A stretch of DNA of 5,080 nt from a virus. Taxonomy: Duplodnaviria > Heunggongvirae > Uroviricota > Caudoviricetes. Positions 138 through 5,080 of the stretch are shown one piece after another. The DNA lies in IMG/VR virus record IMGVR_UViG_2585427789_000018; one strand, written 5' to 3'. The notes under the pieces were generated by a model that did no database searches, was not told the origin of the DNA, and saw only the letters and a list, made by a program, of their open reading frames with translations. The translations under genes were made by a program, and so were the position numbers. How positions within the stretch are numbered: position 1 is the stretch's first letter; every line of letters starts with the position of its first letter.

Positions 138-506
138 AGTGCAGCCATAACGTTTAACAGTGATTTTGTCGAAACTCTCCAGCGTCGAGAAGGAGAGACT
201 GCATTCCGGGTTGTTGCACTGGCAGAGTTTCCAGCGGACAGTTCCGGTATCGTTCGCTGCGCGACTGGTGCGGGTGCGTGTGCTCGCACCACAAAAAGGA
301 CACGGAAAAGACACGACGAAGCGGCCAGAAGGGAAGCTACGCCACAACCACAGGCTGCTGCGTTTTCCGGTGAGATACATGTACATCTGCACAACGTCAA
401 CACACAGAATCCGCGCGAACTGGCAAAACTGGTTGGTGAGGCCGTCCGCGAAGAGATGCGCAGACAGGCGCGTACAGGCATGAACAGCTTCCGCGACAGG
501 GACTAA
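138..506 (+). pseudogene. 3' fragment of a tail-module gene (probably P2 gpT-like tape-measure C-terminus); no start codon
   Basis: Frame open from the stop at 135-137 to TAA at 504-506, ending 13 nt before the gpU-like start. The translation ends ...PRELAKLVGEAVREEMRRQARTGMNSFRDRD and contains no initiator Met apart from the last few codons. A second frame is open from 26 to 154, so an indel near 138-154 may have broken a longer gene. Assignment to tape measure rests on P2 synteny (T precedes U), not on recognised sequence. Confidence 0.35.
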
Positions 507-519
507 AGGAGACGCAATT

Positions 520-978
520 ATGATGATGATTTTTGGCATGTTTGTGTTTGAGCTGAAAACGCTTCCGCATCAGCAGATCCAGCAGAGCAAAACATGGCGA
601 CATGTGAAAAATGAGCGCATTAACCGCTCTGCGGCCTGGCAGTATATTGGCGCAGGTGACGATCAGATCACGCTGTCCGGTCTGTTGTACCCGGAAATTA
701 CCGGTGGTGAGGTGTCACTGACACTGCTGAACACCCAGGCCTACACCGGATGTCCCTGGCCGCTGATTGATGGCACGGGGCAGATTTACGGAATGTACGT
801 GATTACAGGATTACAGACCACCCGCTCCGAGCTGGATCGTTACGGAAAGGCAAAAAAGATTGAGTTTTCCATCAGCTTTCAGCGGTGTGATGAGGATATG
901 AGAGAGCGGTTTCAGTCTGCTTCTGCGGGCGAACTGCTGAACGCGCTTAAAGACAAAATGCCTGTGGCTGCATTCTGA
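520..978 (+). CDS. Phage tail protein, P2 gpU-like
   Basis: 152-aa ORF starting ATGATGATG (MMMIFGMFVFELKTLP...), with an AGGAG Shine-Dalgarno at 507-511, 8 nt upstream. The N-terminus and size match my recollection of the P2 GpU family. It follows a tail-gene fragment in the same orientation. Confidence 0.8.
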   Translation: MMMIFGMFVFELKTLPHQQIQQSKTWRHVKNERINRSAAWQYIGAGDDQITLSGLLYPEITGGEVSLTLLNTQAYTGCPWPLIDGTGQIYGMYVITGLQTTRSELDRYGKAKKIEFSISFQRCDEDMRERFQSASAGELLNALKDKMPVAAF

Positions 979-987
979 ATAAAAAAA

Positions 988-1012
988 GAGGGAGTGTAAA
1001 AAGCACTCCCTT
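988..1012. terminator. GC-rich hairpin after the gpU-like gene, flanked by A7 upstream and TTA downstream
   Basis: Stem GGGAGTG (990-996) pairs with CACTCCC (1004-1010) around a 7-nt loop. A7 lies at 981-987 and only TTA follows on the plus strand, so the U-tract is better on the minus strand; it may act bidirectionally. Confidence 0.5.
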
Positions 1013-1103
1013 ATGGCCTTCATGGAAAAGAAGCAAAATGTTGTCAATACATTCTGACTATATATAAATCGCCCGATGATGGCAATGGTGATATTCTGGA
1101 AAT

Positions 1104-1127
1104 AAAAAAAGCCCTCATAAAGAGGGC
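1104..1127 (-). terminator. Intrinsic terminator oriented for minus-strand transcription
   Basis: Stem GCCCTC (1111-1116) pairs with GAGGGC (1122-1127) around a 5-nt loop. It is preceded on the plus strand by A7 (1104-1110), which gives a U7 tract after the hairpin on the minus strand. Confidence 0.5.
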
Positions 1128-1171
1128 AACATGCATTGTGTGAAGATTTAATGTTCTATGTTCCGGAAGGG

Positions 1172-1201
1172 ATTATATTAAGCGGGGATTGTCAATTGCA
1201 A
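1172..1201 (-). promoter_or_regulatory. Candidate sigma70 promoter on the minus strand (TTGCAA-N18-TATAAT)
   Basis: On the minus strand the -35 TTGCAA (plus 1196-1201) and -10 TATAAT (plus 1172-1177) are 18 nt apart. The predicted start near 1165 lies about 40-60 nt upstream of the minus-strand terminator at 1104-1127. The sequence is AT-rich, so a chance match is possible. Confidence 0.3.
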
Positions 1202-1223
1202 TATTTTAATTTGTTATTGCAAT
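1195..1223. promoter_or_regulatory. Two copies of the palindrome ATTGCAAT spaced 21 bp (candidate operator pair)
   Basis: ATTGCAAT occurs at 1195-1202 and 1216-1223, two helical turns apart, overlapping the -35 of the candidate minus-strand promoter. Confidence 0.3.
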
Positions 1224-1291
1224 TGCTGAAAATGTTTCTCGTGTTTTGATTGCCATGATTACAATTTTGTTTGTTACTGTATCTTTGCGGC

Positions 1292-1315
1292 AAAAAAAAG
1301 CCCGCACGGGGCGGG
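1292..1315 (-). terminator. Intrinsic terminator oriented for minus-strand transcription
   Basis: Stem CCCGC (1301-1305) pairs with GCGGG (1311-1315) around a 5-nt loop. It is preceded on the plus strand by A8 (1292-1299), which gives a U8 tract on the minus strand. Confidence 0.55.
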
Positions 1316-1377
1316 AAAAGAATGTTTGCATGTATAGAACACTACGGGATTATAAATAATTTCTGCGTTCTGAAAAG

Positions 1378-1396
1378 TCCTCCCTTTTAAGGAGGA
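1378..1396 (+). promoter_or_regulatory. Hairpin pairing an anti-SD-like UCCUCC with the Shine-Dalgarno GGAGGA
   Basis: TCCTCC (1378-1383) and GGAGGA (1391-1396) form a 6-bp stem around a 7-nt loop. The only strong SD upstream of the ATG at 1409 is inside this stem. Confidence 0.35.
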
Positions 1397-1408
1397 GAGA
1401 TCATACCG

Positions 1409-1459
1409 ATGTATTGTAATAACCTTCATCAATTCACGGAAGTGAAAGTCAACAACTGA
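1409..1459 (+). CDS. Hypothetical 16-aa ORF (MYCNNLHQFTEVKVNN)
   Basis: ATG at 1409 and TGA at 1457-1459. The SD AAGGAGGAG (1389-1397) lies 11 nt upstream and is sequestered in the hairpin. Not hydrophobic; coding status unproven. Confidence 0.15.
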   Translation: MYCNNLHQFTEVKVNN

Positions 1460-1468
1460 ACTTATTTT

Positions 1469-1552
1469 ATGTATACAATCCACTCCGCCAGTTTAATTCT
1501 GTTTTCATCTCTGATTATGAGTGGCGGTAATTTACACAGCCCGGAGTTTTAA
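1469..1552 (+). CDS. Hypothetical 27-aa ORF (MYTIHSASLILFSSLIMSGGNLHSPEF)
   Basis: ATG at 1469, 10 nt after the previous stop, with no own SD. Its TAA overlaps the next ATG as TAATG. It has a hydrophobic core. Confidence 0.15.
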   Translation: MYTIHSASLILFSSLIMSGGNLHSPEF

Positions 1553-1632
1553 TGTTGCCCGCTTTTATGATCTTTAAGCACACCATATTAATCGCCTGCA
1601 TATTACATCTGGTGCCATTTAAATACTTCTGA
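1552..1632 (+). CDS. Hypothetical 26-aa hydrophobic peptide (MLPAFMIFKHTILIACILHLVPFKYF)
   Basis: ATG at 1552 with GGAG (1543-1546) 5 nt upstream. The peptide is strongly hydrophobic and consistent with a single transmembrane helix. Its stop at 1630-1632 is in frame with, and immediately precedes, the degenerate gpU' remnant. Confidence 0.2.
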   Translation: MLPAFMIFKHTILIACILHLVPFKYF

Positions 1633-1640
1633 CGCTGGTT

Positions 1641-1760
1641 TGAAAATCTGGAGTTTACCGTCTGCTTTCAGTGGCGTGATGCGGGGGATGAATTTTAGTT
1701 TGTTTCTGCGGGCGAATTACTGAATACGATTAGAGATGAATGGTGAAGGCTGCATTCTGA
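1641..1760 (+). pseudogene. Degenerate second copy of the gpU-like gene 3' end
   Basis: Plus-strand 1651-1760 aligns by eye with 862-978 of the intact gene, sharing blocks TTCTGCGGGCGAA and GGCTGCATTCTGAA plus the A-tract and hairpin. Its frame reads ...ENLEFTVCFQWRDAGDEF (compare KKIEFSISFQRCDEDMRERF) and hits a premature TAG at 1696-1698. Confidence 0.55.
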
Positions 1761-2302
1761 ACAAAAAAACAGGGGCAAATCCCCCTGTTTCCTGCTACGT
1801 CAGCGGGGCGCTGTCTGTTGTTGTACCGCCTGCCGTCAGGGGCGGCAAATTCCGCACGGTGGAGACGTTGCAGGTGCAGGGGCTGGAATTTGAAGAGCAG
1901 GCCCGTGTGATTGAGCAGTTCACGCACAAATACAACGTCCAGCACATTGGTATCGACGTGACCGGCGGTAACGGTGAGGCAGTGTACCAGATAGTGCGGC
2001 GGTTCTGGCCTGCCGCCGTGCCGTACACGTTCACGCTGGCATCCAAACGCGCGCTTGTGCTGAAGATGCTGCAGATTATTCGTGCGGGGCGCTGGGAGTA
2101 TGACCGGGGCGAACGTGAGCTGGTCAGGGCATTCAACGCTGTGCGCAAGGCAAAAACGGCGGGCGGGGCAATAACGTATGAAACAGACCGCACACGCGGC
2201 GTAAACCACGGCGACCTCGCGTGGGCAACCATGCTTGCCGTCATTAACGAGCCGCTGGGCGATGAGGACGGTGCAACAGGAATGCGGGTGATTGAGTTCT
2301 GA
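1736..2302 (+). pseudogene. 5'-truncated large terminase subunit (P2 gpP-like), nuclease-domain fragment
   Basis: The 188-aa ORF contains HIGIDVTGGNGEAVYQIV and NHGDLAWATMLAVINEP near its C-terminus, which fits the RNase H-like nuclease domain of large terminases. It ends TGATG-overlapped with the portal start. Its first ~18 codons come from the gpU' remnant and terminator, so terminase homology begins near 1795; about 400 N-terminal residues (ATPase domain) are missing. Confidence 0.6.
1763..1790. terminator. Hairpin terminator homologous to the one after gpU (A7, hairpin, TTT)
   Basis: Stem CAGGGG (1770-1775) pairs with CCCCTG (1782-1787) around a 6-nt loop, flanked by A7 (1763-1769) and TTT (1788-1790). 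Confidence 0.5.
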
Positions 2303-3351
2303 TGAAAAAACAAAAACGAAAATATTCGCGCCGCGATGACGGCGTGGCGCTGGCAGAGGCACTGCGCCGCCAGCCGTCGTTAAGCGCCTTCTCGTTCGAC
2401 GGCCCTTACGATGCGCACGCACTCGACCTGCTGGATAACGCATACTGCCTGAGTAACGGCAGATACTACGAAACGCCCGTTGACTGGTACGGACTGGCGC
2501 GGGCATCCCGGCAGACCTCGTGGCACCAGTCGGCGCTGTACTTCAAGCGGAATGCCATACTGGGCTGCTTCATTCCGCACCGGCTGCTCTCCCGGCAGGC
2601 GTTCTCCGCCTTTGCGCTGGACTGGTTTGTCTTCGGGAATGCGTTTCTTGAACTGCGCACCAACAGGCTGGGCGGAAAACTGGAACTACGGCACGCGCTG
2701 GCAAAATACGTCCGTCGTGGTGTTGAGCCGGATGTGTACTGGTTTGTGCAGACGGGGGAGCAGGACCACGAGTTCCGTCAGGGGCGCGTCTGCCATGTGC
2801 TGAACCCCGACATCAACCAGGAGATGTACGGAATGCCGGAATATCTCGGTGGCCTGTTGTCTGCCAGTCTGTCGCACTCGGCAGATCGCTTCCGCAAACT
2901 CTACTATGACAACGGTTCACATGCAGGCTGCATCATTTACGTGGGGGCAGCACAGGTTGATCGCGAAAGTATGCAGGCTCTCGAAAGAGCGTTGCAGGGC
3001 GCAAGAGGCGGTGGGGCATTCAAGAACCTGCTACTCCAGGCACCGAACGGCGGGAAGGACGGTGTGCAAATCCTGCCATTCCAGCAGATCACCGCCCGGG
3101 ATGAGTTCATGAACGTCAAGGCGGCCTCCCGTGATGATGTGCTGGCCGCTCACCGTGTACCACCACAACTGATGGGCGCAATGCCCAGCGGGCAGGGTTC
3201 TTTTGGTGATGTGGAGAAGGCGGCCAGAGTGTTTGCGATCAACGAACTGATGCCGGTGATGGAGGCGATGAAGCACGTTAATGACTGGCTGGGCGAAGAG
3301 GTGATCCGTTTTAACCCTTACGCACTGCTGGATACCCCGCCCATATCCTGA
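2302..3351 (+). CDS. Phage portal protein, P2 gpQ-like
   Basis: 349-aa ORF, close to the ~344 aa of P2 Q. It is translationally coupled to the upstream terminase fragment through TGATG at 2300-2304, the expected terminase-then-portal order. Codon usage is consistent and all other frames are closed. Confidence 0.8.
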   Translation: MKKQKRKYSRRDDGVALAEALRRQPSLSAFSFDGPYDAHALDLLDNAYCLSNGRYYETPVDWYGLARASRQTSWHQSALYFKRNAILGCFIPHRLLSRQAFSAFALDWFVFGNAFLELRTNRLGGKLELRHALAKYVRRGVEPDVYWFVQTGEQDHEFRQGRVCHVLNPDINQEMYGMPEYLGGLLSASLSHSADRFRKLYYDNGSHAGCIIYVGAAQVDRESMQALERALQGARGGGAFKNLLLQAPNGGKDGVQILPFQQITARDEFMNVKAASRDDVLAAHRVPPQLMGAMPSGQGSFGDVEKAARVFAINELMPVMEAMKHVNDWLGEEVIRFNPYALLDTPPIS

Positions 3352-3377
3352 CGCGCTCCGCTTGTCTGCTGCTTCTC

Positions 3378-3401
3378 CGGGGCATAAAAATTTATGCCCC
3401 G
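3378..3401. other. Perfect 11-bp inverted repeat (CGGGGCATAAA-AA-TTTATGCCCCG) 27 nt after the portal stop
   Basis: Arms at 3378-3388 and 3391-3401. No T-tract follows on either strand, so it is not a canonical intrinsic terminator; it could be a transcript-end stability hairpin or a protein-binding palindrome. Confidence 0.5.
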
Positions 3402-3485
3402 ACTCACCAGCTCCGGTGTGTCACGCACCAGGCATCTCAGGGATCTACCAGGTTGAATAACCTGTCAGCACACGTCGCATCAAAG

Positions 3486-3512
3486 TGCATCACAGGCATG
3501 TGATGCATCAGC
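3486..3512. repeat. Cluster of TGCATCACA motifs and overlapping palindromes
   Basis: TGCATCACA occurs at 3486-3494, inverted at 3499-3507 and again directly at 3800-3808. The first two form a hairpin (GCATCACA-GGCA-TGTGATGC, 3487-3506), and the palindrome TGATGCATCA lies at 3502-3511. Confidence 0.4.
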
Positions 3513-3720
3513 CCATACTTCACCACACAACCAATAAAACATCGCGTCAGGGGCACAATCAGCAGCATTTCTGGCGATTTCTGAGGATGCTTTCAGACCC
3601 CAAATTGCGGGCTGTTCCCCCGGCACCTGCGCGCAACAAAAACGCGTTTTTTTGTGCATGCACGGATCCCTGACGGATCCAGCTGCCACGCGGGCCGGAA
3701 GGGTAAAAAGTCGTTCAAAA

Positions 3721-3750
3721 AAATTGTGCAAATTTGTGCACTTTTGTGCA
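3721..3750 (+). repeat. Three tandem 10-bp repeats with core TTGTGCA
   Basis: AAATTGTGCA, AATTTGTGCA and CTTTTGTGCA have cores at 3724-3730, 3734-3740 and 3744-3750, at an exact 10-bp period. A fourth core lies at 3652-3658. Confidence 0.5.
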
Positions 3751-3769
3751 GGTAAGCATGCCCATATAT

Positions 3770-3798
3770 TTGACCGTAGCTTGCCTTTGATGTAGTTT
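3770..3798 (+). promoter_or_regulatory. Candidate promoter (TTGACC-N17-TAGTTT) upstream of an inverted repeat and a strong RBS
   Basis: The -35-like TTGACC is at 3770-3775 and the -10-like TAGTTT at 3793-3798. It is followed by the inverted repeat AACCAC-AAAAC-GTGGTT (3811-3827) and the SD GAGGGGG (3839-3845). The -10 is weak. Confidence 0.25.
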
Positions 3799-3850
3799 AT
3801 GCATCACAAAAACCACAAAACGTGGTTATGATTTCTATGAGGGGGTTGAT

Positions 3851-3886
3851 ATGAAAAAAATGCATGATGAATTTGATGGTTTCTAA
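3851..3886 (+). CDS. Hypothetical 11-codon ORF (MKKMHDEFDGF) with a strong RBS
   Basis: ATG at 3851 lies 5 nt after GAGGGGG, and TAA at 3884-3886. It sits 37 bp before the IS186 end. It could be a leader peptide or the decayed start of a gene. Confidence 0.15.
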   Translation: MKKMHDEFDGF

Positions 3887-3922
3887 GCTACGTTGACCTC
3901 TAATGAGGCGGGGATTTGCTCC

Positions 3923-5080
3923 CATAAGCGCTAACTTAAGGGTTGAACCATCTGAAGAATGCGACGCCTCGGTGCCTCGTTAAGACGATGCCTCGCGTTC
4001 TTCAATTGCGTTTTGTAGGCTGTCAGGGATACTGTCCCACGAATGGCCACCTGTAAGCTCCAGATGACCATTTTTGTTATTCTCCACAACGAGTTAGTTC
4101 TTCTTTTCGGATCCGGCACTTCTGGGGGGGAAATCCAGCGATGGCTGGATTATGTCGTCAATTAAAAATGCGGCGAGTAGATTAGCAAATATCCACGCTT
4201 TCGCGAGTTCAGGTTCCTTTGCACGCAAAGCATCCAGGTGCAGCAAACTTTTGAGCCGCTTAAAAGCCAGTTCAATTTGCCATCGCAGACGGTAACAATC
4301 AGCCACTTGCTCTGCTGAATATTCATCTTCCGGTAATGATGTTAGCAATAGCACATGGCCCGCTGCTTCCAGCGTTTCCGCCTGAACTACTCGTCCTTTT
4401 CGACGATTCTCGCTGAGCAGTCGGGTTTTACTGATTAATGCTTTTTCGGGAGGAAGTGATACGGCAATGAGACGTGCCGGAAAGGGAGCTCCGGCTTTTT
4501 TATTACCTGAATTGCCTATCATTACAGTGGTTTCACCGTTCTTACCGCAATCCAGCCCGCGCAGAAAACCCATCATGTCAAAGCGCATTCCTTCTGCAGT
4601 TAACCAGCGCAATCCTCGCCAGTGAACCCGGACGATATAATCAGCTTCTCCAAAAGCAAGTGAGCGGATACATTCGGGACGCGAACCGAATCCCCGGTCA
4701 GCAATGCGTATCTCGTCTGCCGTTTGCGCAAATCGGTCCAGCCGTTCAGCGTCTCTGCTGTCGGTTAGCTCAAAATCAGTGAACTGACAGGTATGAGGAT
4801 CATATCCCATATGTAGTCGCCATTCAGCGCTGCCGCCCCCGGGCGCACTGATTGCTGTTCCATCGACAAGACGCAATCTCTTTCCGCTTGTACAACCCGT
4901 AACTGCGGCGCGTACAGCAAGTGTTTGTGCGGCAAGTATGCCAAACCAGTCGGCGGCATTCCGCAGCCGCTTCAGGAGAGCCACGTCAGATAATGTTGCA
5001 ACGTCATGGAGCTGAGCCCATGCAGTGACTTCACGTAATGACATCCCCCCGGGGCCGTAAGCCAGCCCCAGACGTAGCAG
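3923..5080 (-). mobile_element. IS186 (IS4 family), right-hand ~1.16 kb; the element continues past the window end
   Basis: The terminus at 3923 reads CATAAGCGCTAACTTAAGGGTTG, which matches my recollection of the IS186 terminal inverted repeat. The internal ORF matches IS186 transposase. The flanking target is G-rich (CGGGGATTTGCTCC), as IS186 prefers. Confidence 0.85.
4094..5080 (-). CDS. insL: IS186 transposase (InsL-like, IS4 family), partial; the N-terminal ~54 aa lie beyond the window
   Basis: The minus-strand frame is open from the window edge to the stop at 4094-4096. The translation (...GPGGMSLREVTAWAQLHDVATLSDVALLKRLRNAADWFG...IDDIIQPSLDFPPRSAGSEKKN) matches the IS186 transposase as I remember it. 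Confidence 0.85.
   Translation of the reverse strand: MLRLGLAYGPGGMSLREVTAWAQLHDVATLSDVALLKRLRNAADWFGILAAQTLAVRAAVTGCTSGKRLRLVDGTAISAPGGGSAEWRLHMGYDPHTCQFTDFELTDSRDAERLDRFAQTADEIRIADRGFGSRPECIRSLAFGEADYIVRVHWRGLRWLTAEGMRFDMMGFLRGLDCGKNGETTVMIGNSGNKKAGAPFPARLIAVSLPPEKALISKTRLLSENRRKGRVVQAETLEAAGHVLLLTSLPEDEYSAEQVADCYRLRWQIELAFKRLKSLLHLDALRAKEPELAKAWIFANLLAAFLIDDIIQPSLDFPPRSAGSEKKN

Follow-up and report, generated by a model that had tools for sequence, protein, structure and literature searches.

The DNA analysed here is a stretch of 5,080 nucleotides from a tailed phage (Caudoviricetes; IMG/VR record IMGVR_UViG_2585427789_000018), which we call the window in its full length, and which is part of a decayed P2-like (Peduoviridae) Escherichia coli prophage. 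On its plus strand, the gene for the tail protein gpU (520-978), the last gene in a remnant of the tail operon and 97% identical at the amino-acid level to gpU of SCU-176, is followed by 820 bp of AT-rich non-coding DNA (979-1800). Positions 981-1376 of this zone, hereafter the module, carry three intrinsic terminators on the minus strand (T1-T3), each preceded by a match to a sigma-70 promoter (P1-P3). The three promoter-terminator units (units 1-3, numbered from the gpU side) and the short RNAs that they may produce are the subject of this report.

T1 consists of a stem-loop at 989-1011, with an 8 bp stem and a 7-nt loop, followed on the minus strand by a U-run at 981-988 (CTTTTTTTAT); T2 of a stem-loop at 1111-1127 with a 6 bp stem and a U-run at 1104-1110 (TTTTTTTATT); and T3 of a stem-loop at 1301-1315 with a 5 bp stem and a U-run at 1293-1300 (CTTTTTTTTG). 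Each stem contains five G-C pairs and is followed by seven or eight T on the minus strand, so that all three show the GC-rich stem-loop and U-run of an intrinsic terminator. They are unidirectional in sequence, with the A-tract lying on the plus strand and no T-tract after the hairpin there. A preliminary description of this DNA had taken these hairpins for canonical terminators of minus-strand transcripts, which was borne out by the terminator scan, by the folds and by the alignment detailed below, in which only 4 of 55 hairpin columns vary. Two further minus-oriented hairpins had been missed: a weak one with a weak U-run (1377-1398), inside decayed tail-fibre-assembly sequence, and a strong one (1764-1785; stem-loop 1771-1785 plus U-run) with a fold z-score of -3.9. 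The scan returned no plus-oriented terminator between 979 and 1800, and transcripts of the tail operon therefore presumably run through the zone.

All three promoter-like sites lie on the minus strand. P1 reads TTGCCA (1085-1080), N17, TATAGT (1062-1057), P2 reads TTGCAA-N18-TATAAT (1201-1172), and P3 reads TTTTCA-N16-TATAAT (1376-1349); the hexamers are close to TTGACA and TATAAT at a spacing of 16-18 nt, with 10 of 12 positions matching in each pair, and each site has its terminator 45-55 nt downstream. P2 and P3 share an extended -10 motif, TATAATCCC, whose copies at 1169-1177 and 1346-1354 (minus strand) are the only two in the window, where 0.01 would be expected. The hexamer pairs and the motif common to two of them were thus recovered where the preliminary description had placed them; for P3 its TATAAT stood, and its -35 element, then called weak, did not deserve the label, since the pair still scores 10/12. 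In strain 135 the corresponding site reads TTTACA-N17-TATAAT and overlaps the final codons of the tail-fibre assembly gene.

As promoter-like hexamers arise by chance in AT-rich DNA, an objection already raised in the preliminary description, 2000 dinucleotide-preserving shuffles of positions 979-1400 were scanned, in which the AT-richness is retained. On average a shuffle gave 0.125 minus-strand promoters scoring 10/12 or better, with three or more at P = 0.0005, and 0.0045 promoter-then-terminator units; two or more such units occurred in none of the 2000 shuffles, against three observed. On the plus strand of 979-1400 no promoter of at least 10/12 was found, and the window contains no match to the consensus of integration host factor. 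The arrangement of promoters and terminators is not an artefact of base composition.

Transcription from each promoter to its terminator would yield minus-strand RNAs of about 70 nt (RNA 1, P1 to T1, 981-1050), 62 nt (RNA 2, P2 to T2, 1104-1165) and 50 nt (RNA 3, P3 to T3, 1293-1342), within the range of 50-70 nt given in the preliminary description. Unit 2 is the only fully self-contained one; RNA 3 would be a 3'-end RNA using the terminator of an operon. RNA 1 has a predicted minimum free energy of -16.2 kcal/mol (z = -2.8), and in the folds of all three RNAs the terminator hairpin is the sole robust structure. A promoter, an A/U-rich unstructured stretch and a terminator with a long U-tail form a predicted layout of the kind seen in Hfq-type trans-acting small RNAs. 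One stretch that might serve as a seed is conserved, in RNA 2 (1128-1150; 2 of 23 columns variable). Unlike the cis-antisense RNAs of the lambda OOP or P22 sar type, RNA 1 has no overlap with the coding or ribosome-binding region of the convergent gene, here gpU: its U-run starts at 981, 3 nt past the stop codon (976-978), and it could overlap nothing but read-through RNA.

The units had been described as lacking a protein-sized open reading frame and as matching no recognised small RNA, and both statements hold. No conserved reading frame lies inside units 1-3, where the minus-strand frames cross the terminators and shift with the length of the T-run, and RefSeq has no gene annotated under the module match. 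A search of the whole window and of 940-1830 against Rfam 15 at permissive E-values gave no family at its gathering threshold; the best match was SpF51 (22.8 bits against a threshold of 50), and all matches were due to the terminator hairpins. No tRNA or tmRNA was found, and literature searches on the locus, including one with exact hairpin sequences, returned nothing. Local alignments between the unit bodies were no better than alignments of shuffled sequences (P = 0.18-0.85), TATAATCCC and the terminator ends being the only elements common to the units; since the bodies are unrelated in sequence, the units are not sibling small RNAs.

Conservation was evaluated in an alignment of 11 sequences, which fall into five main haplotype groups and belong to one phage lineage; their four-fold degenerate gpU sites differ from the window by 12-22%, which serves as a rough neutral yardstick. 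Variable columns amount to 4/55 in the hairpins, 0/18 in the -10 hexamers, 5/18 in the -35 hexamers, 25/103 in the RNA bodies, 17/51 in the promoter spacers and 36/109 in the spacers between units. Compared with the spacers (53/160 variable, 33%), variability is significantly lower in the hairpins (Fisher P = 8e-5) and in the -10 hexamers (P = 0.002). Both classes of element are thus conserved beyond the level of the spacers, conservation being what the preliminary description had named as the key test, and the hairpins are under purifying selection. Pairing in the stems is retained in 99.5% of alignment cells, with 18 of 20 pairs invariant and one compensatory pair, at low statistical power. 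This pair, a G-C to C-G change in the otherwise invariant stem of T1, bears on the covariation test that had been proposed for the candidate transcripts, and no further structural evidence came from the alignment. In T2 all six pairs are invariant, and in T3 none of the 15 stem-loop columns varies.

Among the promoters, P2 provides the clearest contrast between hexamers and spacer: its -10 island AATATAATCCC (11 columns) and the TTG of its -35 hexamer are invariant while 12 of the 18 spacer columns vary, which leaves an invariant island inside the most variable stretch. The -10 hexamer of P1 is likewise invariant, its -35 hexamer being either TTGCCA or TTGCCT. The bodies of RNA 1 and RNA 3 vary at 7/38 and 7/27 columns, respectively. 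RNA 2 is divided into the 3' part of its body with the candidate seed stretch and a 5' end of 15 nt that occurs in two alleles and varies at 9/15 columns. In the variable spacer at 1202-1292, 32 of 91 columns vary around two conserved islands (1227-1237 and 1256-1265).

The position of the terminators is best understood from intact relatives. In SCU-176 and in strains of sequence type 131 (ST131), the tail operon FI-FII-E-T-U lies on the plus strand and is convergent to a minus-strand operon for baseplate and tail fibre. The tail-fibre assembly gene (188 aa) of strains 135 and TUM9803 stops with a TAA that precedes the TATAAT of unit 3 by 9 nt, and T3 follows about 45 nt past this stop codon. 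By this position T3 is the terminator of the tail-fibre operon in a seemingly older arrangement, and it thereby has a co-oriented operon upstream; T1 and T2 lie farther downstream on the same strand. T1, whose U-run lies 3 nt from the stop codon of gpU, acts as a back-stop against minus-strand transcripts that would otherwise enter U. A homologous succession of U end, A7 and hairpin persists at 1748-1785, where it adjoins the downstream gene, and by this homology T1 is the counterpart of the A7 tract and hairpin of the right-hand copy. The special features of the locus are T2 and the three promoters. In the window strain both flanking late operons are deleted, so that any RNA from the zone must originate at P1-P3.

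A BLAST search of 5426 complete E. coli genomes located the module in 72, in every case on the chromosome and in single copy (two copies in one genome), and these are exactly the 72 genomes with this gpU allele. It is intact in all of them and in all haplotypes, with 1-nt indels only, while its right flank has been swapped in at least three ways. BLAST searches of GenBank phage genomes returned no module, the sole match being a fragment of the tail-fibre gene junction, and exact 19-22-mers retrieved only the same haplotypes from IMG/VR and metagenomes. For a wider comparison, 43 loci with gpU relatives were collected from species-representative genomes of other genera, including Serratia, Salmonella, Enterobacter, Pantoea and Kosakonia. 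At 60% identity or more, gpU relatives mostly share the convergent layout of U and tail-fibre genes, and in other genera the gap between them usually measures 40-240 bp. BLAST with the module found no match in the 43 loci, and a covariance model of unit 2 hit itself and nothing in these loci. Two of the gaps were scanned (loci L024 and L017) and contain one minus-oriented terminator each and no promoter match. As the module is missing from the gaps of the relatives, it is a lineage-specific addition to an ancestral gap with a single terminator. Its GC content (0.33-0.38) lies well below that of the flanking genes (0.55-0.62).

In prophages of several other genera the gap carries a conserved non-coding element of its own, the palindrome CTGTGCTGCAGCACAG followed by TTAAAAATGAC.GTACTCGATA, which lies at about 3555-3600 in L024 and in similar form in L017, L020, L025-L027, L029-L031 and L033. 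Its hosts are Enterobacter, Kosakonia, Serratia, Symbiopectobacterium, Mixta and others, and it is unrelated to the E. coli module.

Morons (Hendrix and colleagues) are insertions between conserved genes of a phage that consist of a promoter, a gene and a terminator. Absence from related phages, distinct composition, and a promoter and terminator of its own were all found for the module; a protein-coding gene was not. Like a moron, it is a lineage-specific insert of lower GC content between conserved late genes, with sigma-70-type promoters and intrinsic terminators; unlike a moron, it would carry nothing but RNA, with 50-70 nt per unit, and the terminators of two of its three units are borrowed from the flanking operons.

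We favour an interpretation in which the locus is a stack of terminators at a convergent junction, combined with an AT-rich non-coding moron from which two or three small RNAs are most likely made, and assign it a probability of about 0.5. In this scheme, 981-1376 would be the meeting zone of two late operons of the intact relatives, the plus-strand tail operon ending with gpU and the minus-strand tail-fibre operon. The three hairpins would all act as minus-strand intrinsic terminators, T3 ending the tail-fibre operon and T1 serving as the last back-stop before U. The E. coli lineage would have gained about 300 bp of AT-rich non-coding DNA between T1 and T3, with T2 and the sigma-70 promoters. 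We infer that these promoters fire in the lysogen, where two to three short non-coding RNAs of about 50-70 nt would most likely be made from the minus strand, accumulate and have a function. Unit 2 (P2 to T2, about 1165 to 1104) would then be a self-contained RNA-only moron and is the strongest candidate, while unit 1 would use the U-proximal terminator and unit 3 would share that of the operon. As no plus-oriented tail-operon terminator lies here, RNAs 1-3 would be perfectly antisense to the 3' tail of read-through transcripts; they could also act in trans on mRNAs of the host or of incoming phages. Of the tandem small-RNA genes proposed in the preliminary description, the candidate RNAs survive as plausible, especially that of unit 2, and the notion of equivalent tandem units does not, given the ordinary roles of T3 and T1 and the unrelated bodies. 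A more ambitious version, in which three unrelated and independently promoted RNAs of 50-70 nt constitute an RNA-only moron that is kept even in heavily decayed remnants, is regulatory and belongs to no described small-RNA family, we regard as tentative and rather unlikely; its RNAs might trim or silence tail-operon read-through, exclude related phages or retune host genes in trans.

A number of points weigh against the proposed small RNAs. T3 ends the tail-fibre gene and T1 follows U, so both have ordinary roles. The conservation comes from only five main haplotype groups of a single phage lineage, and phage mosaicism makes the alignment columns non-independent. The block 981-1150 is of low diversity, for which reason the conservation of P1, RNA 1 and T1 is weakly informative. 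The RNA 1 and RNA 3 bodies diverge at about the neutral rate in some haplotypes, with an identity of only 82-85% in the most divergent one; the 5' end of RNA 2 is hypervariable, and no conserved seed is evident except 1128-1150. Complementarity to 44 kb comprising the SCU-176 prophage and its flanks does not exceed 11 nt, which is chance level. Finally, the islands at 1227-1237 and 1256-1265 (plus strand TGAAAATGTTT and TGATTACAAT) are invariant and fit none of the tested models.

Several of these points suit the best of the alternatives, namely that tandem terminators prevent the strongly expressed tail-fibre operon from being transcribed onward, in antisense, through the tail genes. The promoter-like hexamers would be a by-product of horizontally acquired AT-rich DNA, silent or at most a source of spurious transcripts, and no functional RNA would be made. 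Tandem intrinsic terminators are familiar, as are GC-rich hairpins with U-runs between convergent genes, and a run of terminators between convergent phage operons is mostly ordinary. The placement of T3 behind the assembly gene in 135 and TUM9803, that of T1 against the U stop, with the homologous U end, A7 and hairpin at 1748-1800 by the downstream gene, and the minus-oriented terminators in the gaps of L024 and L017 all agree with such a function, and it would also account for the nearly neutral drift of the bodies of RNA 1 and RNA 3 and for the lack of targets in the 44 kb of SCU-176 prophage and flanks. It leaves aside, however, the three promoters of at least 10/12 on a single strand, each well placed before a terminator (P <= 0.0005 in the shuffles), and the 18 of 18 invariant -10 columns, including those in the 11-nt island of P2, against 33% variable columns in the spacers. 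T1-T3 also differ from a simple stack in that each unidirectional hairpin has a conserved promoter match upstream, which such a stack does not need, and in L024 and L017 a single terminator suffices, without any promoter match. What lifts the locus above the baseline of such terminator runs is its conserved promoters, chiefly P2, and we consider it possible but not probable that terminators are all there is to it.

Far less probable is that the whole segment is inert debris from repeated swapping of tail-fibre cassettes. For the right side (1355-1800) this is demonstrably the case. It contains a decayed, minus-oriented remnant of the tail-fibre assembly gene and of the tail-fibre/assembly junction (1435-1632), in which 1435-1515 still encodes 27 residues that align with residues 138-164 of the protein in strain 135 (63% identity, E = 2e-6), and 1546-1632 is about 80% identical to the tail-fibre/assembly junction of P2, of SfMu and of many of the approximately 800 other matching E. 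coli genomes. Next to it the 3' end of gpU is present a second time, in decayed form and on the plus strand (1642-1761; repeat families D1, D2 and D4, 79-93% identical to 854-992). This copy together with its A7 and hairpin (1642-1785) is, by its homology, a recombination-borne fossil of a simpler junction of U, terminator and next gene. The module itself is bounded by a 12-mer resembling the U end, CTGCGTTCTGAA (1363-1374, repeat family D6). Inside these bounds, however, the module stayed intact but for 1-nt indels in 72/72 genomes while its right flank was rearranged, the spacers vary significantly more than hairpins and -10 hexamers do, and one stem carries a compensatory change. The decayed tail-fibre assembly gene is found both in the window and in SCU-176-type prophages. 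Invertase crossover sites were sought near the 3' end of this gene and dropped, the resemblance being weak, by eye only and at the wrong location.

The least probable of the alternatives considered is a type I toxin-antitoxin-like system, in which a hydrophobic peptide encoded on the plus strand (about 1150-1292) would be controlled by RNA 2 as an antitoxin antisense to its 5' untranslated region and start: the frame is open in four of five haplotypes despite a nucleotide divergence of about 20% (for example MFRKGLYWVGVIETIFLIIIVIDENVSCDFVALITILSVTVSLW followed by a stop codon, 44 aa, in strain 135; locus L007, about 1665-1800), the islands 1227-1237 and 1256-1265 coincide with its ENV and LITI motifs, and RNA 2 is antisense to the frame start and the region directly upstream, but a TAA breaks the frame in the haplotype of the window, frame-shifting 1-nt indels leave neither the start codon nor about ten initial codons conserved, the frame of the C-terminal tail depends on the length of an A-run (7, 8 or 9), a Shine-Dalgarno sequence is absent, variable sites are distributed 13/8/12 over the codon positions with a synonymous to non-synonymous ratio near random expectation, no plus-strand promoter was found at 10/12 or 9/12 (the best -10 by eye being TATAAA, without the final T), and no Pfam, NCBIfam or sequence homologue and no RefSeq gene were found here. 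Of the features of type I systems, a conserved small hydrophobic reading frame with start codon and Shine-Dalgarno sequence opposite an antisense RNA, the locus thus lacks the conserved frame and start and the Shine-Dalgarno sequence. In the same region, a mini-frame of 10 codons (MKMF..LLL and stop) has a conserved start and stop that match the two islands; it has no ribosome-binding site.

If transcribed from P1-P3, the RNAs are members of an already well-known class, the prophage-encoded small and antisense RNAs. The OOP RNA of phage lambda measures 77 nt, has a constitutive promoter and an intrinsic terminator, and overlaps the 3' coding end of cII. Like OOP, the RNAs considered here would be short, with promoter and terminator of their own, and convergent to the 3' end of a phage operon; unlike OOP, RNA 1 would overlap no more than a presumed read-through tail, and there is no sequence similarity and the phage family is a different one. 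In Salmonella, prophage BTP1 encodes an OOP-like RNA of a lambdoid prophage, OOP-BTP1, as well as STnc6030, a transcript of about 786 nt that is antisense to coding sequence and confers superinfection exclusion by antisense pairing (PMC7067206). With STnc6030 the units share the origin from a structural-gene region of a prophage and the non-coding nature; STnc6030 is expressed in the lysogen, while the units are predicted, 50-70 nt long and intergenic.

Should they be transcribed, the units would represent unnamed prophage-borne small RNAs in E. coli lineages to which ST131 and isolates from the bloodstream belong. They would further illustrate RNA-only moron cargo downstream of tail-fibre genes, a site that is a hotspot for cargo in P2-like phages. 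They have no bearing on any long-standing open question.

The remainder of the window documents the decay of the prophage. It begins with the ogr region (1-321), to which the tape-measure gene is joined without intervening genes and with only its 3' end left (to 506); compared with H1827/12, D, FI, FII, E and the greater part of T have been lost. The junction (about 318-321) was encountered only in AST19 and in EC0026B-derived genomes, and AST19 and EC0026B match the entire window exactly, including the junction. H1827/12 matches window positions 318-3945 at 100% identity, its remnant being located between copA and glsA. To the right of the non-coding zone, and directly after it, starts the C-terminal third of the large terminase (1802-2299; 166 C-terminal residues, 80% identity to SCU-176), which RefSeq names an 'oxidoreductase' pseudogene. 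Its adjacency to the zone points to a deletion of 11-12 kb with head, lysis, baseplate and tail-fibre genes. It is followed by the portal gene (2302-3351) and, from about 3920 to 5080, by a copy of the insertion sequence IS421.

In the non-coding DNA between the portal gene and IS421, positions 3715-3745 contain three close TTGTGCA repeats and the palindrome GTGCAAATTTGTGCAC, which scores as terminator-like on both strands; the repeats and palindrome may form an operator-like site. In the intact prophage of SCU-176 (L002, 3186-5179), a gene for a Hok/Gef-family toxin and a DUF3800 gene stand on either side of ogr and are accessory cargo that lies at the opposite end of the late genes. The copy of IS421 (IS4 family; 3920-5080) has the opposite orientation to the same element in H1827/12, which suggests, from the comparison of the two sequences, an inversion associated with the insertion sequence or its re-insertion.

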